Shown in pieces: positions 3,804 to 18,183 of a DNA stretch of 64,000 nt (position 1 is the first letter of the stretch; each line of letters begins with the position of its first letter). The DNA lies in the NCBI GenBank assembly GCA_026397315.1, contig JAPLVC010000001.1:149111-213110 (forward strand), read 5' to 3'. The notes under the pieces are model-generated. The model had not been told where the DNA came from. It saw nothing but the letters and a program-made list of their open reading frames with translations, and ran no database searches. This stretch comes from Candidatus Aenigmatarchaeota archaeon (GTDB lineage Archaea; Aenigmatarchaeota; Aenigmatarchaeia; QMZP01; QMZT01). A program made the position numbers and the translations under genes.

Positions 3804-5549
3804 TTAATTTTTCTTATTTTTTATAATATTGCTAGTCTTGTAATCGCCCAGTTTTTCCCTGATTCTCACAATTTTACACACAATGCCATCTTCAGCCAGA
3901 AGCTTCGCTAGCGCTTTCTCGTCAGCCTTCTGGTCATGGCCCAGCGCTATGATATCCGGCATAGCCCACATTATCGTTTTTAAATAACTGCTTTCTTCTT
4001 TGCCCAAAAATGCACCGTCAACATAAGATATTTCTTCCATGACGGCCAATCGTTGCTTTTCCTCGTTAATAGGTAATCTTCCCTTAAAATTTTTTGCAGT
4101 TTGATCTCTGGCTATTATGACTATCAACAAATCTCCCAATAATTTGGCGGATTTAAGCAAATGTAAATGTCCTGGATGTACTATATCAAAAACTCCTCCA
4201 GTAAGAACAACCTTGAATTTCATCCTACCTTTCTCATTTAGTGAATATTTTCCTGGGAGAAAACCAATTAATGACGATCTTCCTCGACTGCCTAAAAAAA
4301 CTCTATCGCTCATCTTATTTACAAGACCTTCACGTAGGAGTTTGCTAACTATCCTTGCCGTTCTAGTATATGTTCTTTGACATTTTAAAGATAATTCGGG
4401 TATTGTGAAAAAACCATATCTGAGTTCTAAAAGGTATGCTTTTTTTAAAAATTCAACAGAAGCTTTACTGTTAGGAAATTGATATTGTTGATAGGAAGAT
4501 AAAGCAACTTTTAATTTTTCCTTTTTATATTTCAAATCAGAACCAATTTTGGTTTCAAATTTAATAAGCTCACTTCTGTTGTCTATGTTTATTTGCCAAA
4601 CGCTAGAATCTGATTTGATTCCTTTGAACTTGGGTCCCACATATTCTATTCCGACTTTATCCAAAAGTTTGCAATCGCCCAACAGCAGAGGGGGTGGGGT
4701 TTTTTTGTCCCTGTTTACCAATCTTAATACAATTGACCGATGTTTCTTTTTTTGATTAAAATAAACAGAACCATCATCGTCAAAACATCTTCTAATAAAA
4801 GTCGTCAAAAATTTTTCATCGTTACCGAAAACAAAATTCGGAATATTCTGTTTATGTTTTTTCAAGTCCCTTTTAAACAAGCAAAGTGTTACTAATGCAA
4901 TAATCGCAGGTAATTTTATTGTATGGTTTGTTAAACTTTTATTCCAACCACCTTTAGGTTCTTCGATTTGACCAAAAATATTAAAAGCAGCATCCAAGAA
5001 GCTTTTTCTCATTAGAAATGCCTCTTTTTCATCACTTGCTTTTTTCTTCGTGTAGGCTGTGAAATTTTCATTTAAAAAGCCATCATGCATGATTGAAGAG
5101 ATATATAGAGCGCCATTATTTGTATTGAAATTGAAAGGTAGTTTGGGATTCAAAATGCTTTTCCTATAAGTTCCTTTGGGTGTTGTTAATTCAAGAATAT
5201 CTTGGTTCTTGATCAATTTAAAATTGTTAATATAATAAAGTATTTTTATCAAAAGAGACAATTTAATAAACTTTCCTTTATCTAGATTGTATAAGGCAGG
5301 GCAGTATCTTTGTCTTATCTTCTCTCCCAAAAACCTGCCAAACTCTGTCAGATTTTTAAAACCTCCCGTTTTTAAGGATAGAAAAATTAGCTCACGCCCC
5401 TTTTTTTCTGTTAATCTTAAGCTGGTTGAAGGGTGCAAATTCCACAAAAATACAATTCCGGTATTTGGTGGTTTATTGAAAAAATCTTGAGATAACAATT
5501 TTTCATTGAAATTCTCAAACGCTTCTTTTAAAAAATCAATTTCAACCAT
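3804..5549 (-). CDS. fusion protein: N-terminal LAGLIDADG-type homing-endonuclease-like double domain plus C-terminal cytidylyl/adenylyltransferase domain (FAD synthase RibL / TagD-like, HxGH class)
   Basis: Residues ~1-440 contain two LAGLIDADG-like motifs about 100 aa apart: ALYISSIMHDGF and FIRRCFDDDGSVYF. Residues ~441-581 form a complete small nucleotidyltransferase (KFKVVLTGGVFDIVHPGHLHLL ... ISYVD). The whole gene is strongly AT-rich compared with both flanks. Confidence 0.6.
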   Translation of the reverse strand: MVEIDFLKEAFENFNEKLLSQDFFNKPPNTGIVFLWNLHPSTSLRLTEKKGRELIFLSLKTGGFKNLTEFGRFLGEKIRQRYCPALYNLDKGKFIKLSLLIKILYYINNFKLIKNQDILELTTPKGTYRKSILNPKLPFNFNTNNGALYISSIMHDGFLNENFTAYTKKKASDEKEAFLMRKSFLDAAFNIFGQIEEPKGGWNKSLTNHTIKLPAIIALVTLCLFKRDLKKHKQNIPNFVFGNDEKFLTTFIRRCFDDDGSVYFNQKKKHRSIVLRLVNRDKKTPPPLLLGDCKLLDKVGIEYVGPKFKGIKSDSSVWQINIDNRSELIKFETKIGSDLKYKKEKLKVALSSYQQYQFPNSKASVEFLKKAYLLELRYGFFTIPELSLKCQRTYTRTARIVSKLLREGLVNKMSDRVFLGSRGRSSLIGFLPGKYSLNEKGRMKFKVVLTGGVFDIVHPGHLHLLKSAKLLGDLLIVIIARDQTAKNFKGRLPINEEKQRLAVMEEISYVDGAFLGKEESSYLKTIMWAMPDIIALGHDQKADEKALAKLLAEDGIVCKIVRIREKLGDYKTSNIIKNKKN

Positions 5550-5632: not shown

Positions 5633-5842
5633 TTACTTCTTAAGGCTCATCGCATCGACGGGGCAGAAGTTCACGCAGGCAGCGCAGTTCACGCATCTCT
5701 TCGCGTCGCATTCTATGCCGTGCTCAGTGAGGTCCAGCGCGAGCTTCGGGCAGACCGCCACGCATCCGCCGCATCGAAGGCACTTGTTCTTGTCCGTTAA
5801 CGCAACCATAAACATCACCCATTTAGACAGAAGCAGATGCAA
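5633..5842 (-). CDS. 4Fe-4S ferredoxin (2 x CxxCxxCxxxCP)
   Basis: CLRCGGCVAVCP and CVNCAACVNFCP motifs are present. The true start is probably an internal Met (MVALTDKNKC, ~58 aa). Confidence 0.7.
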   Translation of the reverse strand: MHLLLSKWVMFMVALTDKNKCLRCGGCVAVCPKLALDLTEHGIECDAKRCVNCAACVNFCPVDAMSLKK

Positions 5843-5921
5843 TCTGCTTCATTCGCTTAATAGGTTATTTTTTAAACTGCGAGCTTAAATATTTGAAATA
5901 ACCAGTGCAAAAGGTGACGTC

Positions 5922-6854
5922 ATGGCAGAGGGTTACGGTTTCGGCAAAATCATTTTGTTCGGCGAGCATTTCGTCGTCTACGGCCTGCCCGCGATAGCTT
6001 CGGCCATAGGGGATAAAACCATCGCCACAGTCGAGACGTCGAAAAAATTCGAACTGGTCGACAAGCGGCCAGCGACAGACGGATACAAGGTGACCAAGAA
6101 AGACGAGATGGACCGCTCGATGAAGCTCATACTCGACTTCATGAAAATCAATCCCGTCAAAACGCCGGTCAAAATCACGCTGTCAGGCAACCTCTTCTGC
6201 ACGAGCGGCATAGGGGCGAGCGCCGCGATGGCGACATCGATTGCCCGCGCCTTTTCAGAACATTTCAACCTCAGTCTCAATGACGAACAGGTGAACAGGA
6301 TTTCATACGAAGGAGAGAAAGGTTCGGCAGGCACGCCTTCGGGCATCGATAACACCTGCGCGACTTTCGGTGGCCTGTTATGGTTCGAGAAGAACCTGAA
6401 AGGCGGCGAGAACAGGATGGAGCTGATAAAGGCGAAGAAGCCGATAGAAATCGTGCTTGGCAACACCGGCATATCGCAGGAGACGAAGCTCGTCGTCGAG
6501 GACGTAAAAAAAGCGAGAGAAGCGGACCCGAAGCGATACGAACGCATATTCAGCGATTACATGAAGCTTGTGAAAGAGGCGAGAGGCGTTATCGAGCGAG
6601 GAGACATCAAAAGGCTCGGCGCGCTTATGGACGAGAACCACCGTCTGCTGAAGGAAATGGGTCTTTCGTGCGTCCAGGCTGAAGATATAATAAGCGTCGC
6701 CAAGGCGAACGGCGCGGCTGGCGCGAAGATAACAGGCACCGGCCGCGGCGGTTATGTGATACTGCTCACGCCGGGAAAAGCGGTTCAGGACAAAGTGGCG
6801 AAAGCGATAGAGACGAAGGGTTACAAGACGCTCAAGACGGAAATCGGCGTTTAA
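5922..6854 (+). CDS. mvk: mevalonate kinase (GHMP kinase family)
   Basis: GHMP ATP-binding motif TSGIGASAAMATS, N-terminal KIILFGEHFVVYG, 310 aa. It is the first gene of the isoprenoid operon. Confidence 0.9.
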   Translation: MAEGYGFGKIILFGEHFVVYGLPAIASAIGDKTIATVETSKKFELVDKRPATDGYKVTKKDEMDRSMKLILDFMKINPVKTPVKITLSGNLFCTSGIGASAAMATSIARAFSEHFNLSLNDEQVNRISYEGEKGSAGTPSGIDNTCATFGGLLWFEKNLKGGENRMELIKAKKPIEIVLGNTGISQETKLVVEDVKKAREADPKRYERIFSDYMKLVKEARGVIERGDIKRLGALMDENHRLLKEMGLSCVQAEDIISVAKANGAAGAKITGTGRGGYVILLTPGKAVQDKVAKAIETKGYKTLKTEIGV

Positions 6855-6955
6855 TATTCGACGATTGGCGTCTTTCAACAATTTAAAATAAGAACCCAAT
6901 TTTTCTATTAAGAATATTGAATATCAAACGGTTGAAAGAGTTCAGGGTGATTTTG

Positions 6956-8236
6956 ATGAACATGAGGGAATTCGTCGATTTGCTGGACAAGAAGGGATTG
7001 CTTGTAAAAGTCAGCAAGCCAGTCGATACCAAATACGAGATTTCGACCATAGTCAAGATGCTAGCGGGAAAGCCCGTGCTTTTCGAGCACGTCAAAGGTC
7101 ATGACATGCCGGTCGTATCGAATGTCTGCTCGACGCGCGACCTCGTCTGTCTCGGCCTCGATATCGACAAGAAGGACCTCATAGCGAAGCTCACGCATGC
7201 GATCGAGAACCCGGCGGAGCCGACGAAGAAAGTGTCGCACGAATATCACGAGCTGGAATGCGATTTGCACAAGCTTCCGATTCTGACTTACTATCCAAAG
7301 GACGGCGGGCCGTACATTGCGTCCGGCATCGCTATCGCCAGGGACGCAGAACACGGCACGAACGCTTCTTACCATAGGGCCATGATTCTCGGCAAGGACA
7401 GGATGGTGCTTCGCATTCTCGAACGCCACCTGAACGAGTACAAGAAGCGCGGGCTCAAGGAATTCGCCTTCTGCATAGGCAATCCCACGACCGTTCTGAT
7501 TGGGGCTGCGATTTCGGCTGAACTTGGAAAAAACGAGCTTGCGATAGCGAACGCGCTGCATGAGACGCATACCATCGAACTGAACGGGCATATTGTCCCT
7601 GAGAGCGAGATAGTGATGATATGCGAGTTCACTGGCGAGCTCGCCGAGGAGGGGCCGTTCCTCGACCTGACCGAGACTTTCGACATAGTCAGAAAACAGT
7701 CTGTGGTGCGCGTCAAGAAAATCTACGCGAAGAAAAACGCGCTCTTCCACGCGCTGCTTCCCGGTGATTTAGAACACAAGATTCTCATGGGTATGCCGAG
7801 AGAGCCGACGATATTCCGCGAGGTGAACAAGGTCTGCGACTGCCGCGACGTTTACATCACGCCCGGCGGATGCTCATGGCTGCACGGAGCGGTCAAGATT
7901 CACAAGAAGCACGACGATGACGGGCGCAAGGCGATAGAAGCCGCGTTCAAGGGTCACGCTTCGATGAAGCACGTTTTCGTCGTCGACGACGACATAAACA
8001 TTGAAGAGCCGAAGGAAATTGAGTGGGCGCTAGCGACGCGTTTCCAGGGTGACAAGGACATGATAGTCAGAACGAAAGAGAAAGGCTCGTCCCTCGATCC
8101 TTCGTCTGACATGGCGACGCGCGAGACGACTAAAGTCGGCTTCGACCTTACAAAGCCGCTCGTCTCGAAGGGCAAGGATTTCAGCAGACCCGAGCTGCCC
8201 ATGAAAATAAATCTTGAAGATTACTTGGTGGAGTAG
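6956..8236 (+). CDS. UbiD-family decarboxylase (probable trans-anhydromevalonate-5-phosphate decarboxylase of the archaeal mevalonate pathway)
   Basis: UbiD N-terminus MREFVDLLDKKGLL and conserved blocks through the length. The gene sits between mvk and the dehydratase/UbiX/IPK genes. The start is chosen at an ATG preceded by GGTGA. Confidence 0.8.
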   Translation: MNMREFVDLLDKKGLLVKVSKPVDTKYEISTIVKMLAGKPVLFEHVKGHDMPVVSNVCSTRDLVCLGLDIDKKDLIAKLTHAIENPAEPTKKVSHEYHELECDLHKLPILTYYPKDGGPYIASGIAIARDAEHGTNASYHRAMILGKDRMVLRILERHLNEYKKRGLKEFAFCIGNPTTVLIGAAISAELGKNELAIANALHETHTIELNGHIVPESEIVMICEFTGELAEEGPFLDLTETFDIVRKQSVVRVKKIYAKKNALFHALLPGDLEHKILMGMPREPTIFREVNKVCDCRDVYITPGGCSWLHGAVKIHKKHDDDGRKAIEAAFKGHASMKHVFVVDDDINIEEPKEIEWALATRFQGDKDMIVRTKEKGSSLDPSSDMATRETTKVGFDLTKPLVSKGKDFSRPELPMKINLEDYLVE

Positions 8237-8563
8237 ATGCGCATGCTAACTGCAGGAAAGGGCAAATACAAAGTATGGCTGAAAGAAGCGAGGCAGGGGA
8301 AGGACTTGGTGCTCTTTCTCGGCGGCGGCGAGAGGACACATATAGGATCAGTCGTCGTGTGCGCTCCAGGGAAACCAGCGAAAGTCATCAACAGGAAAGG
8401 CCATTACGATTGGATGGTCGCCATGCCCATAGCGGAGAAAAAGAGCAGAAAGACAAAGAAGGCGGTCGTGTGCATAGCCGGGATTCACGTTAACAATGCT
8501 AGCAAAAAAGAGATAGAGATTCTCAAAAAGAACTGTAAAAAAATAGAGGATTATATTAGATGA
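8237..8563 (+). CDS. hypothetical small protein embedded in the mevalonate operon
   Basis: 108 aa. Its start overlaps the UbiD stop (TAGATG) and its stop overlaps the next start (ATGA), so the gene is translationally coupled on both sides. No family was recognised. Confidence 0.5.
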   Translation: MRMLTAGKGKYKVWLKEARQGKDLVLFLGGGERTHIGSVVVCAPGKPAKVINRKGHYDWMVAMPIAEKKSRKTKKAVVCIAGIHVNNASKKEIEILKKNCKKIEDYIR

Positions 8564-9150
8564 GTCTTATGAAGCGGAACAAGTGGTATAAAATTTTACT
8601 CAAGGAAGCCGAAATGTATTTGAAAAAAGCACCAAAAGTTTCGCCAGTGCACAAATCCGATCACCTGAAAAGGGTCTGGAAGAGGTCGGAGATCCTGTGC
8701 AAGAGTCTGAACTGCGATCCTGATGTCATGGTTGCGGCATGCCTTCTTCATGATCTTGGAAGGCATCACGGGCTCGAAATACACGGAAGGAAATCAGCCG
8801 AACTCGCAAAGCCCATACTTGAAAGGCATAACTTTCCCAGGGACAAAATACCCAAAGTCCTGGATGCGATAGCTCAGCATGACTATAATTTTCCGCCTGC
8901 CGAAAGAAAATCAATAGAGTCCAAGATTCTTTACGATGCCGACAAAATGGACGCTTTCGGAACAGTGGGCATTTACAGGCACTTGCTATTCATTGAGGCG
9001 GGCAGGATAAGGATGAACGAGGTCATTCCACTGCTAGAAAAAAGATGGACTGGTTTAACGCTGATTGAAAGCAGAAAAATCGCAAAGGAGGATTACGAAT
9101 ACACAGTTAACTTTTTTAAAAGCTTGCAAAAAGAATTGAAGGAGGCATGA
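8560..9150 (+). CDS. HD-domain metal-dependent phosphohydrolase
   Basis: The HD motif LLHDLGR and a downstream D (YDADKMD) are present. 196 aa. Located inside the mevalonate operon. Confidence 0.75.
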   Translation: MSLMKRNKWYKILLKEAEMYLKKAPKVSPVHKSDHLKRVWKRSEILCKSLNCDPDVMVAACLLHDLGRHHGLEIHGRKSAELAKPILERHNFPRDKIPKVLDAIAQHDYNFPPAERKSIESKILYDADKMDAFGTVGIYRHLLFIEAGRIRMNEVIPLLEKRWTGLTLIESRKIAKEDYEYTVNFFKSLQKELKEA

Positions 9151-9153
9151 ATT

Positions 9154-10335
9154 ATGTATCTCACTAAAGAACAGGAGAATATGCTTAATGGCGGGCACGG
9201 CGAAGTCGTCGAAAGGCAAATGCGGCTGCTTGTGCGGCTCGGCGAAATATACAAGGCCGACAAGATGATAGACGTCGGCTCCGTGCAGGTCGCCGGCGTT
9301 TCATACAAGTCGATAGGCGACCCGGGTCTCGAGTTCCTCGAGGATATTGCTCACAAAGGAGCGAAGGTCAAGGTCCTGACTTTTTTGAATCCCGCGGGTA
9401 TGGACATGGAGAACTGGAGGGAAATAGGCTTCCCCGAAAGCTTCGCGACGATGCAGAAGAAGGTTATGGACGCGTTCGAGCAGATGGGCATCGTCATGTC
9501 AGCGACATGCACGCCATATCTCGCCGGCAACCTGCCTCGCTTCCGCGAGCACATCGCATGGTCCGAGAGCTCGGCTGTTTCATTTTCCAATTCAGTAATT
9601 GGTGCAAGGACGAACCGTGAAGGCGGACCGTCCGCACTGGCGGCTGCGATATGCGGCTTCACTCCGAACTACGGCCTGCACCTCGACGAGAACAGGAAGC
9701 CCCACATGCTCGTGAAAGTCGACGCGAAGCTGGAATACAACTCGGATTTCGGCGCGCTCGGCTACCACGTAGGCAAGATCGCCGGCAGCAAGATTCCTTA
9801 TTTCACCGGCATAAAGAACGCGAACACCGACAATCTCAAAGCGCTCGGCGCTGCGATGGCGGCCAGCGGGGCTGTCGCTCTCTATCATGCGGAAGGTCTT
9901 ACGCCAGAAGCGAGCACGATGGAAACGAAAGGCCTCGAGATCATAGAGGTCGGCGAGAAGGAGCTGAAAGAAGCGTATGCGAAACTCAACACGGGCAAGG
10001 ACCCGGACCTCGTCGTCGTGGGATGCCCGCACGCATCGCTCAGGGAGATAATAACAATCGCGAAAAAAATCGATGGCAAGCACCTGAAAAAGCCGTTCTG
10101 GATATGCACCTCGCGCGTCATGAAGGACGCTGCGACGCGCATGGGCCTGACGGCAACGATAGAGAAAGCAGGCGGAAAAATCGTGGCTGATACGTGCATG
10201 GTCGTCTCGCCCATCGAGGAAATGGGCTTCAAGACGACCGGAGTCGACTCTGGAAAAGCGGGAAACTATCTTCCCGGCTTCTGCAAGCAGAGCGTCGTGT
10301 TCAAGAACATAGACGATCTGATAAAATCCGGATGA
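9154..10335 (+). CDS. aconitase-X-type dehydratase, large subunit (putative phosphomevalonate dehydratase, DUF521)
   Basis: 393 aa with MYLTKEQENMLNGGHGE...VGSVQVAGVSYK, typical of the AcnX catalytic subunit. It is followed directly by the small swivel subunit. Confidence 0.8.
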   Translation: MYLTKEQENMLNGGHGEVVERQMRLLVRLGEIYKADKMIDVGSVQVAGVSYKSIGDPGLEFLEDIAHKGAKVKVLTFLNPAGMDMENWREIGFPESFATMQKKVMDAFEQMGIVMSATCTPYLAGNLPRFREHIAWSESSAVSFSNSVIGARTNREGGPSALAAAICGFTPNYGLHLDENRKPHMLVKVDAKLEYNSDFGALGYHVGKIAGSKIPYFTGIKNANTDNLKALGAAMAASGAVALYHAEGLTPEASTMETKGLEIIEVGEKELKEAYAKLNTGKDPDLVVVGCPHASLREIITIAKKIDGKHLKKPFWICTSRVMKDAATRMGLTATIEKAGGKIVADTCMVVSPIEEMGFKTTGVDSGKAGNYLPGFCKQSVVFKNIDDLIKSG

Positions 10336-10384
10336 CGACTTGAATTTATGTTCAAGGTCGTCTTTCGAAGGAAATGGTGATGTC

Positions 10385-10783
10385 ATGACGAAAGAAGTTA
10401 TGAAAGGAAGAAGCATTTCGCCTGGGAAAGCGGAAGGCGAAGCGATAGTTTCGAAGACGCCGCTCGGATTCTACGGCGGCATCGATGCAAAAACGGGCAT
10501 CGTCATCGAGAAGGGTCATGAGCTTGAGGGAAAGAACGTCAAAGATAAGATTCTCGTTTTCCCCACAGGCAAGGGCTCGACGGTCGGCTCTTACGTCATA
10601 TATGGACTGAAAAAGAACGGCGTCGCTCCCAAGGCGATAATCAACAAGGAGACGGAAACCATCGTCGCTACGGGCGTGATTCTCGCCGACATACCGTGCG
10701 TCGACCAGATAGACATAGAGAAGCTGAACACGGGCGACAGGCTGAAAGTCGACGCAACGAAGGGAACGGTAGAGCATGCGTGA
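10385..10783 (+). CDS. aconitase-X-type dehydratase, small subunit (DUF126)
   Basis: MTKEVMKGRSISPGKAEGEAIVSK...LVFPTGKGSTVGSYVIYGL. The start is chosen at the ATG after GGTGA. Confidence 0.75.
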   Translation: MTKEVMKGRSISPGKAEGEAIVSKTPLGFYGGIDAKTGIVIEKGHELEGKNVKDKILVFPTGKGSTVGSYVIYGLKKNGVAPKAIINKETETIVATGVILADIPCVDQIDIEKLNTGDRLKVDATKGTVEHA

Positions 10784-11348
10784 CGCTTCAGAAAAGGAAA
10801 GAATCATAGTCGGCATTTCAGGCAGTTCATGCGCCATCCTTGGCGTGCGCTTTCTCGAGGTCGCAAAAAAGCTCGGCTTGGAGACGCATCTCGTCATAAG
10901 CGAGACTGCTGAGAAAATCATAGAGCACGAAACCGGTCGCAAGGTCAGCGACGTCAGAAAGCTCGCGACTAAAGCTTATGGCTACCGCGACCTTTTCGCT
11001 GCGATAGCGTCCGGCTCTTTTCAGACGAAGGGCATGGTCATAATACCGTGCAGCATGAAAACGCTAGCAGGCGTTGCCAGCGGTTATTCCGACAACCTGA
11101 TGTTACGGGCGGCGGACGTTTGTCTTAAAGAACGGCGAAAGCTGGTGCTGGTCGCGCGCGAGACGCCTCTGAGCCTGATACACATCGAGAACATGAAACG
11201 CGTTACGCTCGCTGGAGGCGTAATCCTGCCACCTGTCATGACGCTCTATGCGAAACAGAAAAGCATAGAAGACCTTACGAATCACGTAATCGGCAAGACG
11301 CTCGACGTGCTCGGCATCGACAACAAGGTTTACAACAGGTGGAGCTAG
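10776..11348 (+). CDS. ubiX: flavin prenyltransferase UbiX
   Basis: IIVGISGSS...LVISETAEKII...MVIIPCSMKTLAG...SDNLMLRAADVCLKERRKLVLVARETP. Confidence 0.85.
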   Translation: MRDASEKERIIVGISGSSCAILGVRFLEVAKKLGLETHLVISETAEKIIEHETGRKVSDVRKLATKAYGYRDLFAAIASGSFQTKGMVIIPCSMKTLAGVASGYSDNLMLRAADVCLKERRKLVLVARETPLSLIHIENMKRVTLAGGVILPPVMTLYAKQKSIEDLTNHVIGKTLDVLGIDNKVYNRWS

Positions 11349-11383
11349 AGACGCTTTTTAAGCCAAAAACGGAATTGATATTC

Positions 11384-12163
11384 ATGAAAAACCTGATATT
11401 CGTCAAGCTTGGCGGCTCGCTGATAACCGACAAGTCGAGGCCATACACCGCAAGGCATGATGTAATCAGAAGGCTATGCAGAGAAATACATGAAGCACGC
11501 TCGGACAAGGATTTCCCGCTGCTCGTCGGCCACGGCGGCGGCAGCTTCCCGCACGTATCCGCGAAGAAATACGAGACGCACAAAGGCGCTATTCGCAGCG
11601 ACAGCTGGGAAGGCTTCGCGAAAGTCCAGGACGACGCCGCGCGCCTGAACAGGATAGTCGTCTCGTCGCTCATGGAAGCGGACGAATACGCGGTTTCGAT
11701 ACAGCCGTCAGCATCGTGCTCGGCAAGGAATGATCGTATTATCAAATGGCACATGACGCCCATAGAAGTCGCGCTCTCAAAGGGTCTCATACCCGTGCCG
11801 CACGGCGACGTGTGCGTCGACGATGTGAAAGGATGCTGCATCATATCCACGGAAGAGATACTGGGCTTCCTAGCGAGAAAGCTCAGGCCAGAGCGCATAA
11901 TCATGGCAGGCAAGACCGACGGAGTGCTGGGCCCGCTGGGAGAGACGATAAAGCGGATTGACAGGAAAAATTACGCGGAGATTATCGACTCGCTCTCCTC
12001 GTCGGACGGCGTCGCGGACGTGACCGGCGGCATGGCGCAGAAAGTGAAGATGTCGCTAGCGATGGGTTGCGAAGTCGAAATAATAAACGGCCTCAAACCA
12101 GGCGAGCTGAAAAGAGCGCTGCTCGGGGAGAGAGGATTGGGAACTATAATTAGCGGAAAATGA
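11384..12163 (+). CDS. ipk: isopentenyl phosphate kinase (amino-acid kinase fold)
   Basis: LIFVKLGGSLITDK...LLVGHGGGSFPH. The start was moved to MKNLIF. Confidence 0.85.
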   Translation: MKNLIFVKLGGSLITDKSRPYTARHDVIRRLCREIHEARSDKDFPLLVGHGGGSFPHVSAKKYETHKGAIRSDSWEGFAKVQDDAARLNRIVVSSLMEADEYAVSIQPSASCSARNDRIIKWHMTPIEVALSKGLIPVPHGDVCVDDVKGCCIISTEEILGFLARKLRPERIIMAGKTDGVLGPLGETIKRIDRKNYAEIIDSLSSSDGVADVTGGMAQKVKMSLAMGCEVEIINGLKPGELKRALLGERGLGTIISGK

Positions 12164-13182
12164 TTGTTATGTCTTCTGACAAAAAATCCGTCACCAAGTC
12201 GCGCAAGGACGATCACATACGCATATGTCTCGAGAAAAACGTCGAGTTCGCGAAGTCGAACGGCTTCGACCGCGTCGAGCTGGAGCACAGCGCGCTGCCG
12301 GAGATTGAGAGAAGCGACATCGATTTGTCCACCAGATTCATGGGAAAGAAGTTCCGCTACCCGCTTTTCATAGAGGCGATAACAGGAGGAACGGCACAGG
12401 GCGAGCGCATAAACAAGAATCTCGCTGCTGCGGCAGAAGCGCTTGGAATTGGAATGGGCGTCGGCTCGCAGCGCGCGATGTTGGAGGACGCGAAAGCTAC
12501 GAGAACGTATTCTGTTCGCGACGTCGCGCCCAGCATTTTTCTTCTCGGCAACATAGGCGCGGCGCAACTGAGGAAATACGATACGTCTCGTGTGCTGGCG
12601 CTGGTCGACGCGATAAAGGCCGACGGGCTAGCGATTCATCTCAACGTCGCGCAGGAACTCGCTCAGAAAGAAGGGGATAAATCATGGAAAGGCGTTTTCG
12701 ACGACATAAAGGCGCTGTGCGCCAAATCGAAAGTTCCGATAATCGCTAAAGAAACCGGCTGCGGCATTTCGGGAAAGCTGTCTGAAGCGCTCGTATCAGC
12801 GGGTGTGAAGGCGATAGACATCGCGGGCGCGGGCGGCACGTCGTGGGTCAAGGTCGACAGCCATCGGACTGACGATGATGTGAGTCACATCGAGGAATGG
12901 GGCATCCCGACGGCGCGGGCGCTGAAGGACGTGGCTGGTTCGGTCGAAGTTCCGATAATCGCTTCCGGCGGCATACGCAACGGCGTCGAGGTCGCTAAGG
13001 CGATAGCGATGGGAGCTTCGCTGGTCGGAATGGCGCTGCCGCTGCTGAAACCAGCGACCGAGTCGTCTGAAAGCGTGAGAAAGCACCTGGAAAAAATAAT
13101 TTCACAACTGGAAGACGCGATGTTCCTTGTCGGCGCGAGGAACGTGTCCGAGCTGAAGAAAGTGAAAGTACTTTACGCATGA
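12160..13182 (+). CDS. fni: isopentenyl-diphosphate delta-isomerase, type 2 (FMN-dependent)
   Basis: RKDDHIRICL, PLFIEAITGG, a TIM-barrel FMN-binding C-terminus (IIASGGIRNGVEVAKAIAMGA). Confidence 0.85.
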   Translation: MIVMSSDKKSVTKSRKDDHIRICLEKNVEFAKSNGFDRVELEHSALPEIERSDIDLSTRFMGKKFRYPLFIEAITGGTAQGERINKNLAAAAEALGIGMGVGSQRAMLEDAKATRTYSVRDVAPSIFLLGNIGAAQLRKYDTSRVLALVDAIKADGLAIHLNVAQELAQKEGDKSWKGVFDDIKALCAKSKVPIIAKETGCGISGKLSEALVSAGVKAIDIAGAGGTSWVKVDSHRTDDDVSHIEEWGIPTARALKDVAGSVEVPIIASGGIRNGVEVAKAIAMGASLVGMALPLLKPATESSESVRKHLEKIISQLEDAMFLVGARNVSELKKVKVLYA

Positions 13183-13208: not shown

Positions 13209-13595
13209 TCAGGCGCTTGTGAACCTGTATCTTCTGGGGGCGAACCTGCCGTTCACACCCGAAAATCCACATCTCTGACAGGTCATCTTGTAAAGGATTT
13301 TCCTGCCCTTGAGGTTCTTCGTGTAAATCTTTTTGAGCCCGCCGTAGCATGACGGGCACTTGTCCATCTTGCCGCCCATGCGCGTTTCAGTGATGATTTT
13401 AGTGCCGGGTATCTTGGAGAAAATGCTGCGCAGGCGGACGCTCGAAACAGAAAGCCTTGAGTCGACCATCTTCAGGCGCATGTTGACGAGGTCAGTGAAC
13501 TCGCGCAGGGAGGCGATTTCTTTATGTTTCTGCATGACCTCTTTTATGACGAAAAGTATGACGTCCTTGTTGGGGACTTTCGCGCCGTCTTTCAT
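13209..13595 (-). CDS. hypothetical protein with a C-terminal zinc ribbon (CPSC...CQRC)
   Basis: 128 aa. Four Cys lie in two CxxC pairs near the C-terminus. Confidence 0.5.
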   Translation of the reverse strand: MKDGAKVPNKDVILFVIKEVMQKHKEIASLREFTDLVNMRLKMVDSRLSVSSVRLRSIFSKIPGTKIITETRMGGKMDKCPSCYGGLKKIYTKNLKGRKILYKMTCQRCGFSGVNGRFAPRRYRFTSA

Positions 13596-13628
13596 GCTTA
13601 ACTTTTGAAGCCGGGATTTTTAAGACTT

Positions 13629-13928
13629 TCAGAAGCGGTGTAGTTGCCTTTTCAGGTCGATTTTGCCGTTCCTTAGCGTTATGCCGTCCTTCCTGAGAAG
13701 CTGCGCTTTCGTTTTCACGCCGCCGCGGCCTGAGTAGCCGCCGAGCGAGCCGTCGGAGCGCACGACCTTGTAGCACGGCGTTTTTACAGGATCGGGGTTG
13801 TGTTTCATGAACATCGCTATCGCTCTCGGGTGCGTTCCGGCCGCTTTAGCGAGCGCTCCGTATGTCGTTATTTTGCCTCGTGGCACCCGCCTCAGCAACG
13901 AGTATACAATCTCCATTTTCGAAGCCAT
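13629..13928 (-). CDS. MGMT-family DNA-binding protein (O6-alkylguanine-DNA alkyltransferase C-terminal domain-like)
   Basis: GKITTYGALA...PCYKVV...LL; a ~95-aa single-domain form. Confidence 0.7.
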   Translation of the reverse strand: MASKMEIVYSLLRRVPRGKITTYGALAKAAGTHPRAIAMFMKHNPDPVKTPCYKVVRSDGSLGGYSGRGGVKTKAQLLRKDGITLRNGKIDLKRQLHRF

Positions 13929-13990
13929 GTTTAAACTTCTTTAATTTAGAATATATATGCCCCAATCCAAATTATTTAAATTGAGGAATT

Positions 13991-14551
13991 ATGCTGAAAG
14001 CCCAGAGCACGAAGGACGGAATAGAGAAGGGCGACGCGGAAAAAGCCATAAAGGAAAACGAGATTATCCTGTTCCTGCTGCCCAACCAGAGCTACTCCGA
14101 CAAGATAAAAGTCGTCGCCGGCGCGGCCGCAAAGACCGGCCAAAGGATATGCTACGTGGCGGCTAACAAGCCTTCAGAAGTACTCTCAAAGGATTTCGAC
14201 AAGAACAAGATCGATATAGCCAAGTTCTATTTCGTGGACTGTGTCACCAAAAGCCTCAAGAATAGCGAGAAAGTCGTCTACGTCTCGTCGCCTAAAGCGC
14301 TCACAGAGATAAACATAGCGCTGAAAAAGATGATAGAGTCGTCTAAAGCGGATATGACGCTTTTCGACTCGCTTTCCACGCTTCTCATATACGAGGACTC
14401 GCACGTCGTCATACGCTTCGTCCACTCGATAATATCGGCTTTCAGGACCATGAAGTCGAAAGGTATTCTAATATCTCTCAAGGAAGAGACGCAGAGCGAG
14501 CTGATAAAAGATTTGAATATGTTCGTTGACAAGGTAGTAGAGTTGGGTTAG
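13991..14551 (+). CDS. KaiC/RecA-like domain protein lacking a Walker A motif (pseudo-ATPase)
   Basis: The RecA-fold layout (..ICYVAANKPSEV...FVDCVT...LFDSLSTLLIY...GILISL) is kept, but the P-loop is replaced by LPNQSYSDK. A paralog sits at 24008..24577. Confidence 0.55.
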   Translation: MLKAQSTKDGIEKGDAEKAIKENEIILFLLPNQSYSDKIKVVAGAAAKTGQRICYVAANKPSEVLSKDFDKNKIDIAKFYFVDCVTKSLKNSEKVVYVSSPKALTEINIALKKMIESSKADMTLFDSLSTLLIYEDSHVVIRFVHSIISAFRTMKSKGILISLKEETQSELIKDLNMFVDKVVELG

Positions 14552-14565
14552 CTGCTGGTGTGTTA

Positions 14566-17500
14566 ATGGCGGTCGGGGTAAAGGGTAAAAAACAAAAGTT
14601 TAGCTGCGGGGATGCATTGCTGGAAAAAATCAGGCAATGCGCTCCCATAGTTGACGTTTTCCCCGACATAGCTTATTTTAAGGACCTGGATCACAGGAAC
14701 GTTTTCATAAACAAGGCATTCGAGAAATTTGCCGGCCGCAAAAAGAGCGATATCGAAGGTAAGCGCGACGACGAGATTCTGCCGAAGGAGCTGGCACGCC
14801 AGTGCATGAAAAGCGACGACGCCGTCAGGAACGGGAAGCCCGTGCACACCGATGAGGCGCTCACGGACAAAGACGGCAAGACTGCATTCTTCGACACCAT
14901 GAAATTCCCCCTGAGGGACGGGGAAGGCCGGATAATAGGCCTCATGGGCATAAGCCGCGAAATCACCGAAAAGAAGCGCGATGAGCATGAGCTCAGGGAA
15001 AGCGAGGCTTCATACAGAGCCATAGCCGACAACATCCCGGGCATTGTTTACAGGATTCATCTCGAGGGTGAAAAAAGCTTCACGGAATTTTTCAACGAGA
15101 ACGTGCAGACGCTTGCAGGTTATCCGCCGGAGAAGCTCAGTGGCGGCAGGTGCCCGATGGATCCGCTAATAGTCAGCGAAGACAGAAAAAATGTGATAGA
15201 GACCATCGCAAATGCGATAAAGAAAGGGCAGCCGTTCAAGGTGGAATATCGCATAAAGAACAAGAAAGGCGATATCCGCTACTTCGCGGAAAGGGGCAGG
15301 CCCATATTTGACGAGAAAATGAAAGCCGAGCACATAGACGGCGTCATTTTTGACGTGACCCAGAGCAAAAAGGCCGACGACGCCTTCAGAAACGTCATGG
15401 ACCAATACAAGTATCTCTATGATGAAAGCCCCGCCGTCAACATAATAGTCGGCAACAACGGCAAAATAATGGACATAAACAGGAAATCTGCGCAGGCGAT
15501 AGGATACAAAAAAGAAGAACTCGTAGGCAAAAGTATTTTCGACCTGATGACTGCGTCCGATATAAAGAAAGCACTGACAGTCCTTAAAGACAGTATCATG
15601 AACAAGTACACACCAGAGATGGAGCTGGCTATAAAATCAAAAGACGGTTCTATAAGAAGGCTGCTTCTTTCCGAAGGCGGCACGCCAATTTACGATAAAG
15701 GGAAAGCTGTCGGAGTGCTGGTCACGGGCATGGACATAACGGAACGCAAGAAAGCGGAAGAGTTGACAAGGCAAAACGAGGAAAAATACAGGAGTATAAT
15801 CGAGCTGGCTCCGGATGGCATAATCTCCGTGAGCCTGAAAGGAACGGTGACAGCGTGCAATTCGGCCTTCGAAAAACTCACCGGATATTCAAAGGAGGAG
15901 ATTGTAGGCAAGCATTTCACCAGTCTCCCGACCATCAACAAGAAGGACATGCCGAGCTACATAAAATTGTTCACTTCCATCATCAGGGGTAAAATTCCGG
16001 AGTCATTCAAGTTCGAATGGAAACACAAAAACGGCTCCTTGCACATGGGCGAAATCCGCGTTGGCCTGATGAAAAGCGGTAACAAAATAACCGGAATGCA
16101 GGCATTCATAAGTGACATAACAGAAAGATTGATGGTAGAAAAAAGGGCTAAGGAGGACGAAGATAAATACAAGTTCCTGGTCGACAGTATGCAGGAGATA
16201 GCAATTATTCTCAGCAAAACCGGAACGATACTGTTCGCCAACAGGTCTGCCCTTGAAACGCTGGGCTATACTGAAGAGGAGGTTATAGGCAAATCCATCG
16301 TTTCTTTCCTCACGAAAGGCTCGCTCAAGAAAGCCTTATATGCGCTCGCGCAGGAATTCCTCGGCAAACATCAGGAGGAGATGGAAGTCGAGGTCAAAAA
16401 CAAAAAAAGCGAGATAAGGACTTTGCTGATTGCCGAGTCATCAAACCCCATTCACAAAGACGGGAAAATGATCGGGATTCTGGTGAACGCCCGCGACATC
16501 ACTGAGCAGAAAAAGACCAATGAATTGCGCAGGGAAAGCGGGGAACAATTCAGAAAGCTCTTCAACGAGATGCCAGACGCCGTCATCATCCTTGACAAGA
16601 AGGGGACGTTGCTTGAAATGAGCAAAGAAGCTGAAAAGATAAGCGGCTATCCGAGGAATGAATTGATAGGCAGAAACATCTTCGCCACACGTATCCTTGA
16701 CATGAAGACGAAGGCGCTCACTATCAGAAAACTGGCCCTGCATTTTTCCGGCGAAAGTGTTCTGCCATTCGAAGTCAAAATCTACAGGAAAGATGGTGGC
16801 ACCGTCCCGCTTGAAATAAAGCCGCAGATGATTGATTACATGGGAAAGGAGGCTGACCTCATAGCTCTCAGGGACCTCACCGAACGCAAGATAGCTGAGG
16901 CTGCAGTCAGCGAGAACGAGGAAAGGTATAGGATACAGTTCGAAGAGGCGCTGGACACTATTGTAATAGCCAACGCGAAAACAGGCATAATAGTTGACTG
17001 CAACCGCGCAGCAACACAGTTGGTCGGGAGAGACAAGTCGGAGCTTATCGGGCAGCATCAAAGAATACTCCATCCGCCAGAAGATACCAAAGGTCAGTTC
17101 AGCGAGACATTCAAAAAACACATAAGCGTTGCCAAAGGCCAACCATTGGAAGCGCGGATTATCACCAAAAGCGGGGAAATAAAGTTCGTTACCATAAAGG
17201 CCAACCTGATTGAAATGAGGGGTGAAAAATTAATTCAGGGAATATTCAGGGACATTACCGAATGGAAAAGAGTGGAAAACGAGTTGAGAAAGAGTGATGA
17301 ACGCTTCAGGCAGATCACCGAAAATGCTTACGAGTGGGTATGGGAAGTTGACACCAACGGTGTGTATACCTATTCGAACACCATAATTGAAAGGATACTT
17401 GGCTACACATCTGATGAGCTTGTTGGTAAGGTACATTTTTACGATTTATTTGCTCCCGATGTGAAAGAGCAGTTAAAGAAAGCGGCCCTTGAAACCTTCG

Positions 17501-18183
17501 CCAAAAAACAACCTATCAGGGGGTTTATAAACCAGAACCTGCACAAGAACGGCAATATGATCATACTTGAAACGAATTGTGCGCCGATCCTTGATGAAAA
17601 AGGCCGCCTCTTGGGCTACCGTGGCGCTGATACGGACATCACCGAACGCAAAAAGACGGAAGATATTATCAAAGAAAGCGAAAGCAGATACAAGCTGATG
17701 GCCGAGCAAACAGGGCAGGTAATTTATGATTATGAGATTGCATCCGGCGCCATTAAATGGTCCGGGGCGATAATGAATATCACCGGTTACACGCCAGAAG
17801 GGTTGCAAAAAATGGGTATAAAAGAATGGGGGGAATCAATCCATCCGGATGATTCCAAGAATGTCTCGGAACTCCTAGACAAAGCAATTAAGCAATGTAC
17901 GAAATTCGACAGTGAATACAGATTCATGCGTAAGGATGGCAGTTACGTGTACGTCGAGGATAGGGGCATCGTGCTAAAAGATGCGAAAGGTAAGCCATAC
18001 CGCATGCTCGGTACCATGAAAGACATTACTTACAGGAAAAAGGCGGATGATGAAATAAAAAATAGGACAGAGGAACTCGAGCGCTTCAACCGTCTCGCCG
18101 TCGGCAGGGAGTTGAAAATGATCGAGCTTAAAAACAGGATTGAGGATCTGGAAAAAAAGCTCAGGGAAAATAAGGATGCATGA
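14566..18183 (+). CDS. multi-PAS/PAC sensor protein without a recognisable output domain
   Basis: About 1200 aa of repeated PAS-PAC units (repeated DITERKKAEE / DITEQKK junctions). The C-terminus is a coiled coil ending ELERFNRLAVGRELKMIELKNRIEDLEKKL. No HisKA or HATPase domain is seen. Confidence 0.8.
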   Translation: MAVGVKGKKQKFSCGDALLEKIRQCAPIVDVFPDIAYFKDLDHRNVFINKAFEKFAGRKKSDIEGKRDDEILPKELARQCMKSDDAVRNGKPVHTDEALTDKDGKTAFFDTMKFPLRDGEGRIIGLMGISREITEKKRDEHELRESEASYRAIADNIPGIVYRIHLEGEKSFTEFFNENVQTLAGYPPEKLSGGRCPMDPLIVSEDRKNVIETIANAIKKGQPFKVEYRIKNKKGDIRYFAERGRPIFDEKMKAEHIDGVIFDVTQSKKADDAFRNVMDQYKYLYDESPAVNIIVGNNGKIMDINRKSAQAIGYKKEELVGKSIFDLMTASDIKKALTVLKDSIMNKYTPEMELAIKSKDGSIRRLLLSEGGTPIYDKGKAVGVLVTGMDITERKKAEELTRQNEEKYRSIIELAPDGIISVSLKGTVTACNSAFEKLTGYSKEEIVGKHFTSLPTINKKDMPSYIKLFTSIIRGKIPESFKFEWKHKNGSLHMGEIRVGLMKSGNKITGMQAFISDITERLMVEKRAKEDEDKYKFLVDSMQEIAIILSKTGTILFANRSALETLGYTEEEVIGKSIVSFLTKGSLKKALYALAQEFLGKHQEEMEVEVKNKKSEIRTLLIAESSNPIHKDGKMIGILVNARDITEQKKTNELRRESGEQFRKLFNEMPDAVIILDKKGTLLEMSKEAEKISGYPRNELIGRNIFATRILDMKTKALTIRKLALHFSGESVLPFEVKIYRKDGGTVPLEIKPQMIDYMGKEADLIALRDLTERKIAEAAVSENEERYRIQFEEALDTIVIANAKTGIIVDCNRAATQLVGRDKSELIGQHQRILHPPEDTKGQFSETFKKHISVAKGQPLEARIITKSGEIKFVTIKANLIEMRGEKLIQGIFRDITEWKRVENELRKSDERFRQITENAYEWVWEVDTNGVYTYSNTIIERILGYTSDELVGKVHFYDLFAPDVKEQLKKAALETFAKKQPIRGFINQNLHKNGNMIILETNCAPILDEKGRLLGYRGADTDITERKKTEDIIKESESRYKLMAEQTGQVIYDYEIASGAIKWSGAIMNITGYTPEGLQKMGIKEWGESIHPDDSKNVSELLDKAIKQCTKFDSEYRFMRKDGSYVYVEDRGIVLKDAKGKPYRMLGTMKDITYRKKADDEIKNRTEELERFNRLAVGRELKMIELKNRIEDLEKKLRENKDA

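Follow-up and report, generated by a model that had tools for sequence, protein, structure and literature searches.

The window analysed here is a stretch of 64,000 nucleotides from Candidatus Aenigmatarchaeota archaeon (GenBank assembly GCA_026397315.1, contig JAPLVC010000001.1, positions 149,111 to 213,110), and its positions 5922–13182 contain nine tightly packed open reading frames (ORFs), all on the plus strand. In order, they encode mevalonate kinase (MVK), a UbiD-family decarboxylase, a protein of 108 amino acids (aa), an HD hydrolase, an AcnX dehydratase's large and small subunits (AcnXL and AcnXS), the flavin prenyltransferase UbiX, isopentenyl phosphate kinase (IPK), and type-2 isopentenyl-diphosphate isomerase (IDI2). 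The 108-aa protein is a member of the LpdD family (PF21758), and by analogy with bacterial LpdD it is presumed to be a chaperone that binds reduced prenylated flavin mononucleotide (prFMNH2) for the decarboxylase. Together with the HD hydrolase, it most likely constitutes a cofactor-supply module for the decarboxylase; support is good for the chaperone part, but what the HD enzyme acts on is a guess. The whole region is probably one operon serving the lower part of the archaeal mevalonate pathway (the trans-anhydromevalonate phosphate route), including both accessory roles as proposed here. What is new is an LpdD-type chaperone with a new archaeal client and a recurrent pathway-associated hydrolase; the pathway and the LpdD family were already known.

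The small protein (8243–8563, plus strand) comprises 106 aa when read from ATG 8243, or 108 aa from ATG 8237. It matched PF21758 with 85 bits (cutoff 27; E = 3.8e-24) over residues 8–103, which was its sole Pfam match, and the same domain was present in 36 of the 36 homologues scanned. The LpdD of Lactobacillus plantarum in the PDB was matched by the single sequence in a phmmer search (E = 0.004), and a profile built from 37 archaeal homologues matched it with E = 2.8e-7. An AlphaFold2 model made from the alignment of the 37 homologues reached a predicted local distance difference test (pLDDT) score of 94.4. When this model was compared with the PDB by Foldseek, the best six matches were all LpdD chains, with TM scores of 0.83–0.86 and root-mean-square deviations (rmsd) of 2.1–2.6 (8pzh/8po5 at the top, TM 0.85, rmsd 2.1), and the next matches were the proteasome chaperones PAC3/Pba3-4 with TM of about 0.5. 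The authors of the LpdD crystal structure saw the same ranking of folds and assigned H35, H61, and D63 (L. plantarum numbering) as the Mn-binding ligands on the protein surface (PMC10865409). These three residues align with H35, H56, and D58 of the window protein; among the 37 archaeal homologues H35 and H56 were invariant, D58 was conserved in at least 90%, and an AGIH motif was likewise conserved.

To define the genomic neighbourhood, one genome per GTDB species was scanned with patterns built from the archaeal subfamily, so that the scan is uninformative on more divergent LpdD genes in other archaea. It yielded 69 loci with an LpdD-like gene, 68 archaeal and one from a Clostridiaceae bacterium (L069). 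The archaeal loci came mostly from metagenome-assembled genomes (MAGs) labelled Thermoplasmata/Thermoplasmatota, and fewer were labelled Aenigmatarchaeota, Diapherotrites/Iainarchaeum, Thermococci, Methanomicrobia, or Conexivisphaerales. Searching the loci by tblastn with the nine window proteins revealed a conserved core of MVK-UbiD-LpdD-AcnXL-AcnXS. Over all clusters examined, more than 60 loci have ubiD placed after mvk and ahead of the AcnX genes. In 67 of the 68 archaeal loci ubiD lay directly 5' of the LpdD-like gene. Upstream sequence exceeded 1.3 kb in 58 of the archaeal loci, and in 57 of these ubiD ended at the start of the small gene, mostly overlapping it; the UbiD C-terminus was still seen 5' of the small gene in the 10 loci that were truncated upstream. 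The exceptions were L064 (archaeal) and L069 (bacterial), where ubiX instead of ubiD was found 5' of the LpdD-like gene; this order resembles that of L. plantarum, in which lpdD comes after lpdB. Overall, the LpdD-like gene adjoined ubiD or ubiX in 69 of 69 loci, and proteasome genes were adjacent in none. Because of the family membership, the conserved metal ligands, and this near-invariant synteny, we consider it quite likely that the window protein binds prFMNH2 and hands it over to the decarboxylase.

The decarboxylases of the LpdD-containing clusters (the window's at 6917–8236 compared with those of L003–L062) fell into deeply separated groups. UbiD proteins of the window type, with 63–96% identity, numbered in the thousands in the database, and a large Thermoplasmata group was only 42–47% identical to the window's UbiD. 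As the AcnX subunits of the LpdD-containing loci were 70–80% identical to those of the window, the decarboxylase either evolves much faster than the dehydratase or was exchanged. In one Thermoplasmata clade (L007–L009, L011, L013, L030, L031, L033, and L040), an opposite-strand gene for tRNA pseudouridine synthase D (TruD) was inserted between the LpdD-like gene and AcnXL, and the insertion appeared split or frameshifted in L030 and L033.

The LpdD family as a whole is of modest size, with 1,312 representative clusters in an exhaustive profile search. In automatic annotation, some of these proteins carry the name 'gallate decarboxylase subunit D', and 'hypothetical protein' is used for others. 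Six longer members were scanned for Rosetta-stone fusions to UbiX or UbiD, and such fusions were ruled out among them; the sole multi-domain member was a protein of 298 aa (P0171) in which a class-II aldolase/adducin domain is followed by a C-terminal PF21758 domain. This fusion hints that some LpdD-family members may work outside UbiD systems.

The second extra gene (8569–9150, plus strand) encodes 193 aa from ATG 8569, or 196 aa from ATG 8560, and matched the HD domain family PF01966 with 53.7 bits. Sequence searches of the PDB retrieved 2pq7, YedJ (3gw7), and YpgQ (5dqv), and the structural model (pLDDT 95.3) matched 2pq7, 5dqw, 3djb, and 3gw7 with TM of 0.66–0.76. In 44 orthologues the metal-ligand motif residues H31, H64, H107, D108, D126, and D128 were invariant, and D65 was conserved in at least 90%. 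Judged by sequence and model, the protein is thus a YpgQ/YedJ-type HD metal-dependent phosphohydrolase, and a metal-dependent hydrolysis of phosphoesters or phosphoanhydrides is supported at this general level only. It is a relative and not an orthologue of E. coli YedJ, as it scored 57.5 bits against the NCBIfam equivalog PRK10119, whose cutoff is 286. Among characterised proteins its nearest relative is YpgQ, which has been described as a nucleotide pyrophosphohydrolase or diphosphatase (PMC11592144).

Orthologues of the HD protein, taken at 50% identity or more, formed 22 distinct groups, of which 19 were in mevalonate clusters, two were outside, and one was on a contig too short to tell, corresponding to 19 of 21 informative lineages. 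The gene occurred in three arrangements: UbiD-HD-AcnXL without LpdD, UbiD-LpdD-HD-AcnXL as in the window, and AcnXL-HD-AcnXS, where it separates two genes whose products are subunits of a single enzyme. In HD-containing clusters with full flanks, both ubiX and ipk were present in 9 of 9. Homologues at 48% identity or below were never found in mevalonate clusters and shared no other common neighbour, so that the wider family gives no functional clue. The homologue search revealed no fusions of the HD protein. That HD is an invariable companion of UbiD or LpdD was rejected, since among the 68 archaeal loci found through LpdD just two (L003 and L005) contain the HD gene and its position in the operon takes three forms.

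A preliminary description of this DNA had left both inserted genes unassigned and proposed that they might serve as a prFMN-handling or maturation partner of UbiD or as a phosphatase editing pathway intermediates. The first label no longer applies to the 108-aa protein, and the prFMN-handling proposal agrees with its Pfam, profile, and fold matches as well as with its place behind ubiD. Neither gene turned out to belong to a clearly unrelated family, and both co-occur with UbiD mevalonate clusters elsewhere, the LpdD-like gene with ubiD and the HD gene by lineage, at the frequencies given above. Of the phosphatase proposal, the phosphohydrolase itself was borne out, and the editing of intermediates survives as one of the alternatives weighed below. 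The accessory function had also been called undescribed, which is right for the archaeal mevalonate pathway and wrong for the chaperone role as such, known from bacteria. Our search of the open-access literature found no paper linking LpdD or the HD hydrolase to the archaeal mevalonate pathway, and the open-access papers on LpdD, on PhdC, and on engineering of the archaeal pathway draw no connection between LpdD and mevalonate.

According to these assignments, the operon could work as follows. MVK would phosphorylate mevalonate, and the two-subunit AcnX dehydratase would yield trans-anhydromevalonate phosphate. The UbiD-family enzyme would decarboxylate this compound to isopentenyl phosphate (IP) using prenylated FMN (prFMN) from UbiX, after which IPK would form isopentenyl diphosphate (IPP) and IDI2 would equilibrate IPP with dimethylallyl diphosphate (DMAPP). 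MVK, phosphomevalonate dehydratase (PMDh), anhydromevalonate phosphate decarboxylase (AMPD), prFMN synthase, and IPK make up the pathway as reported (PMC12547664, PMC10040528). The LpdD-like protein would bind the oxygen-sensitive prFMNH2 released from UbiX and pass it to the apo-decarboxylase, and this hand-over would raise the amount of active decarboxylase when the cofactor is scarce. L. plantarum LpdD binds only reduced prFMN; its complex with prFMNH2 activates apo-Fdc, and E. coli apo-UbiD as well when a cell component is added, and LpdD raises LpdC activity when UbiX is limiting (PMC10865409). The location of the LpdD-like gene directly behind ubiD, often overlapping it, suggests co-translation with its client.

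For the HD enzyme, we propose that it may strip the terminal phosphate from DMAPP to give dimethylallyl monophosphate (DMAP), and perhaps from IPP to give IP, which would provide the monophosphate prenyl donor for UbiX. DMAP is the prenyl donor used by UbiX (PMC7662398). DMAPP-to-DMAP conversion is favoured because UbiX needs DMAP, YpgQ-type enzymes cleave phosphoanhydrides, and the HD gene travels with ubiX and ipk; an isoprenyl diphosphate as the substrate is nevertheless only a tentative suggestion, with the odds against it. Somewhat less probable still is the full scheme, in which the LpdD-like protein and the HD enzyme form a dedicated prFMN supply module of an essential archaeal pathway and the latter makes DMAP for UbiX. 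If the scheme were true, the source of the monophosphate donor for UbiX would be explained and a product of the pathway would prime its own decarboxylase. Likewise, the LpdD-like protein would carry oxygen-labile prFMNH2 where O2-dependent maturation is unlikely, and in hosts engineered with the archaeal pathway, which saves ATP, adding both genes could make decarboxylation less of a bottleneck.

Several observations weigh against a cofactor-supply module of this kind. The first concern the homology itself. The small protein and its L. plantarum counterpart LpdD share only about 22% identity, and the LpdD paper states that the mode of action is unclear, that metal binding is not essential, and that LpdD only rarely adjoins UbiD genes (PMC10865409). 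The second concern the presence of the genes. In L155, which is syntenic on both flanks, L156, and L157, whose UbiD proteins are 86%, 67%, and 66% identical to the window's, ubiD is followed directly by acnX with neither gene in between. The closest relative, L001 (proteins 93–95% identical), has the LpdD-like gene without HD, and L075–L078 (UbiD 77–78% identical) have HD without LpdD. In the UbiD tree, the window with both genes, L001 with LpdD only, L075–L078 with HD only, and L155 with neither all belong to one clade. The slot between ubiD and acnX also takes unrelated insertions, including opposite-strand TruD, peptidase-like genes, a methyltransferase, and HAD phosphatases. As for the HD enzyme, two orthologue groups (L070/71 and L085) lie outside mevalonate clusters and its characterised relatives act on nucleotides; the contrast in ubiX content, 9 of 9 clusters with HD and 7 of 30 without it, is confounded by phylogeny. 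Since close relatives lack one or both, the LpdD-like and HD genes are dispensable for the cluster. A divergent LpdD hidden in the HD-only or UbiD-only clusters was considered and rejected, as L081, L084, and L086 were the only ones in which the family hidden Markov model (HMM), run on translations of all six frames, gave a match.

Two alternatives to isoprenyl diphosphate hydrolysis by the HD enzyme are about equally likely, and we hold each to be possible without preferring it. According to the first, the enzyme edits or regulates pathway intermediates, either by clearing a dead-end phosphorylated by-product of the dehydratase or kinases or by opposing IPK and thereby setting the IP/IPP ratio. 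The HD gene nearly always adjoins the AcnX genes, even lying between those of the large and small subunits, and ipk is part of all nine of the fully flanked clusters. Phosphatases of the HAD type are likewise found repeatedly in these operons (L065, L073/L089, L088, and L093). Against such a role, the HD gene has been lost in close relatives with no visible compensation in the cluster, and HAD and HD genes occur together in L088 and L093, indicating that one does not simply stand in for the other.

According to the second, the HD enzyme is a nucleoside triphosphate (NTP) pyrophosphohydrolase, a 5'-nucleotidase, or a hydrolase of FAD to FMN, with a link to the operon that is indirect, through FMN for UbiX, or absent. 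The nearest characterised proteins are YpgQ and the nucleoside 5'-monophosphatase PenF, and both the scattered homologues at 48% identity or below and the two orthologue groups outside mevalonate clusters fit such an activity. However, 19 of 21 informative groups in mevalonate operons, in three independent arrangements, would be unexpected for a housekeeping nucleotide hydrolase.

For the small protein, the rival to a transient chaperone role would be that of a structural subunit bound permanently to the decarboxylase, in the manner of VdcD and VdcC, and this we regard as unlikely. The position of the LpdD-like gene next to ubiD, often overlapping, in 67 of 68 loci does suggest stoichiometric co-production with the decarboxylase, but the protein belongs to the LpdD family rather than to a VdcD-type family, with PF21758 as its only Pfam match, and in L064 and L069 its gene follows ubiX and not ubiD. 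A fixed-subunit role is less likely above all because very close relatives of the decarboxylase do without an LpdD-like gene in their clusters, which is hard to fit with an obligatory subunit. A homologue of proteasome-assembly chaperones with no relation to the pathway, as the Pfam name 'bacterial proteasome assembling chaperone-like' and the PAC3/Pba3-4 fold matches might imply, is most improbable and was ruled out by the fold scores (TM 0.85 for LpdD and about 0.5 for PAC3/Pba3-4), the conserved LpdD metal ligands, and the genomic context, in which ubiD or ubiX is always a neighbour and proteasome genes never are.

A prFMNH2 chaperone for the decarboxylase thus remains the preferred role of the small protein, and its consequences reach beyond this operon. 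UbiD enzymes expressed in heterologous hosts are often inactive since prFMN loading or maturation fails. LpdD was the first chaperone to become known for this step, and its discoverers called it rare (PMC10865409). Homologues of LpdD are now seen as a regular partner of the presumed archaeal mevalonate decarboxylase in at least 67 species-level genomes; the family thus reaches into archaea and into a pathway that is essential and does not involve aromatic compounds. Moreover, natural matched pairs with and without the chaperone are available to probe its role. The archaeal pathway is economical in ATP, and work to engineer it into bacteria is under way (PMC12547664, PMC13198327); both accessory genes are cheap candidates for co-expression, and the HD orthologue group of mevalonate operons is a candidate pathway-associated enzyme.

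The remaining genes of the operon were assigned by family models. MVK (5922–6854, 310 aa) scored 231.5 bits with TIGR00549 (cutoff 163) and has the GHMP kinase N- and C-terminal domains. The UbiD-family decarboxylase (6956–8236, 426 aa) scored 316.6 bits with TIGR00148 and contains all three UbiD domains; its nearest solved structure is the UbiD-family decarboxylase 6h6v/6h6x, and it is presumed to be AMPD. The phosphomevalonate dehydratase is of AcnX type II, with a large subunit (9154–10335, 393 aa; PF04412, E = 1.1e-162) and a small subunit formed by the AcnX swivel domain (10385–10783, 132 aa; PF01989, E = 4.9e-35; NF003046, 186 bits, cutoff 163). The large subunit matched PDB entry 7cnr, a DUF521 protein of 386 aa, with E = 6.7e-115, an entry that we take to be the archaeal type-IIb enzyme of Watanabe et al. 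2021; the two-subunit dehydratase is thus present according to both the family models and this match. UbiX, the prFMN synthase (10776–11348, 190 aa), scored 243 bits with TIGR00421 and matched NF004685. IPK (11384–12163, 259 aa) scored 201.6 bits with the archaeal model NF040647 IPPK_Arch (cutoff 120), and IDI2 (12160–13182, 340 aa) scored 404.9 bits with TIGR02151 (cutoff 281), so that MVK, IPK, and the IPP isomerase are each above the cutoff of the curated model.

All nine ORFs are on the plus strand, with the order and coordinates given in the preliminary description, and the profile models agree with the families that it named. It had called the pathway complete, which needs qualifying. 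On these assignments, the operon encodes every step from mevalonate to IPP and DMAPP, but the upper pathway is outside it; queries from related loci for HMG-CoA reductase, thiolase, the DUF35 protein, and a partial HMG-CoA synthase gave no tblastn match in the 64-kb window.

The mechanically called ORFs begin upstream of the favoured starts at TTG 6917 for UbiD, TTG 10340 for AcnXS, and GTG 11339 for IPK. The homologues of UbiD have 423–426 aa and are covered to 100% from ATG 6956, and the genes homologous to AcnXS encode 128–134 aa. The window HD protein is identical to an NCBI protein (P0037) across its 193 residues. Because the homologue lengths and the NCBI protein point there, later start codons are favoured for five genes, namely ATG 6956 for UbiD, ATG 8243 for the small protein, ATG 8569 for HD, ATG 10385 for AcnXS, and ATG 11384 for IPK. 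With the revised starts, most junctions have gaps of 3–6 nt, and wider gaps are found between MVK and UbiD (an AT-rich spacer of 101 nt), AcnXL and AcnXS (about 49 nt), and UbiX and IPK (about 35 nt). The junction strings noted earlier as signs of tight coupling, TAG ATG at 8234–8239 and ATGA at 8560–8563, are present in the DNA. Further overlaps exist where the UbiX start meets the AcnXS stop, as read from the junction sequence, and where the IPK stop and the IDI2 start share ATGA.

Upstream of mvk, direct reading of the sequence revealed an A/T-rich TATA-like element (TTAAATATTT; 5885–5894, plus strand) about 30 nt 5' of the start codon and an AGGTGA ribosome-binding site immediately 5' of the ATG. 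The TATA-like element is a candidate promoter of the operon. A promoter and terminator scan of the bacterial (sigma-70) type gave only background, and its model is not applicable to archaea.

Divergent from mvk, the minus strand encodes a small 2x[4Fe-4S] ferredoxin (5633–5842) and a protein of 581 aa (3804–5549), of which only the last ~135 residues form a cytidylyl/adenylyltransferase domain (PF01467). Its N-terminal part of ~440 aa had no family match except faint ones to intein-containing proteins, and is encoded in a stretch of low GC content (35% compared with ~50%). In L155, a syntenic locus, this ferredoxin is accompanied by a plain transferase of 137 aa, so that the extension of the 581-aa protein looks like an insertion, possibly a remnant of a homing endonuclease or intein. 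On the 3' side of the operon (13209–18183) are genes for a 128-aa protein, a protein with an MGMT-type DNA-binding domain, a KaiC-like DUF7504 ATPase, and a 1,207-aa protein that, judged from its translation alone, looks like a multi-PAS sensor. Downstream in L155, the first three of these genes are in the same order, and next comes a sensor kinase whose domains differ.

Other mevalonate clusters had further additions. In L001, a 195-aa S-adenosylmethionine-dependent methyltransferase (12501–13088) is located between ubiX and ipk. The HAD phosphatases mentioned above (L065 1771–2424, L073 2356–3171, L089 940–1755, L088 977–1657, and L093 457–1122) are on the operon strand inside the archaeal clusters, after ubiD or LpdD or beside HD, and are of two types, beta-phosphoglucomutase-like proteins of ~220 aa and a HAD protein of 271 aa; by their predicted family, they are a second kind of phosphohydrolase recruited to archaeal mevalonate operons. 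L082 (1166–2158) combines a GHMP protein resembling diphosphomevalonate decarboxylase and a type-1 IDI, two ORFs assigned by eye, with UbiX, UbiD, and HD, and this mix suggests that ATP-dependent and UbiD-type decarboxylation routes exist side by side. A single-locus pathway fuller than that of the window is found in L074 (1–11023; MAG labelled Diapherotrites), where HMG-CoA synthase, thiolase, and a DUF35 partner are directly 5' of MVK-UbiX-UbiD-HD-AcnXL-AcnXS-IPK-IDI2, with a LAGLIDADG-like ORF among the upper-pathway genes. L072 (2181–2799 and 4546–5751) carries a PemK/MazE toxin-antitoxin pair between two GHMP-kinase genes of its cluster; no ubiD gene was called there though tblastn finds UbiD similarity, so that ubiD of L072 may be disrupted or mis-assembled, and it is intact in the near-identical L073.

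By family models and the 7cnr match, and with its UbiD-family enzyme presumed to be AMPD, the window has the enzyme set by which Aeropyrum pernix and Methanosarcina mazei convert mevalonate (Hayakawa 2018 and Yoshida 2020, cited after PMC10040528 and PMC12547664). The window differs from the described pathway in having all lower-pathway genes in one operon together with the LpdD-like and HD genes, which are outside the pathway as described or as rebuilt in E. coli (PMC12547664). Compared with YpgQ of Bacillus subtilis (5dqv/5dqw) and YedJ of E. coli (3gw7), the HD protein shares the HD domain, the H...HD...H...D residues, and the all-helical fold (TM 0.68–0.76), but is only 20–25% identical to them and lies in mevalonate operons. 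Other small proteins linked to UbiD/UbiX, the PhdC/YclD prFMN maturases and the subunit VdcD, also promote an active holo-enzyme (PMC13040415, PMC10865409). PhdC is a flavin-reductase-like oxidative maturase and VdcD an integral subunit, and their folds are unrelated to that of the window protein, which matched only LpdD.

The closest parallel to the small protein is LpdD of L. plantarum (lp_0272; PDB 8po5, 8pzh, 8pzo, and 8p4w), a prFMNH2 chaperone for the system of the gallate decarboxylase LpdC and the UbiX homologue LpdB (PMC10865409). The two have in common the PF21758 domain, the fold, the His-His-Asp site, the AGIHV motif, and a gene beside a UbiD/UbiX pair. The LpdD fold, a six-stranded sheet packed by two helices and similar to PAC3/Pba3-4, agrees with the window model, and a homodimer formed through a beta-sandwich interface is a trait of the LpdD family. 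Unlike LpdD, the window protein is archaeal and shorter (105–108 aa compared with ~130 aa), shares few identical residues with it, and is encoded after ubiD and not after ubiX. Its presumed client also differs, being the decarboxylase of an essential lipid-precursor pathway instead of an aromatic-acid decarboxylase.

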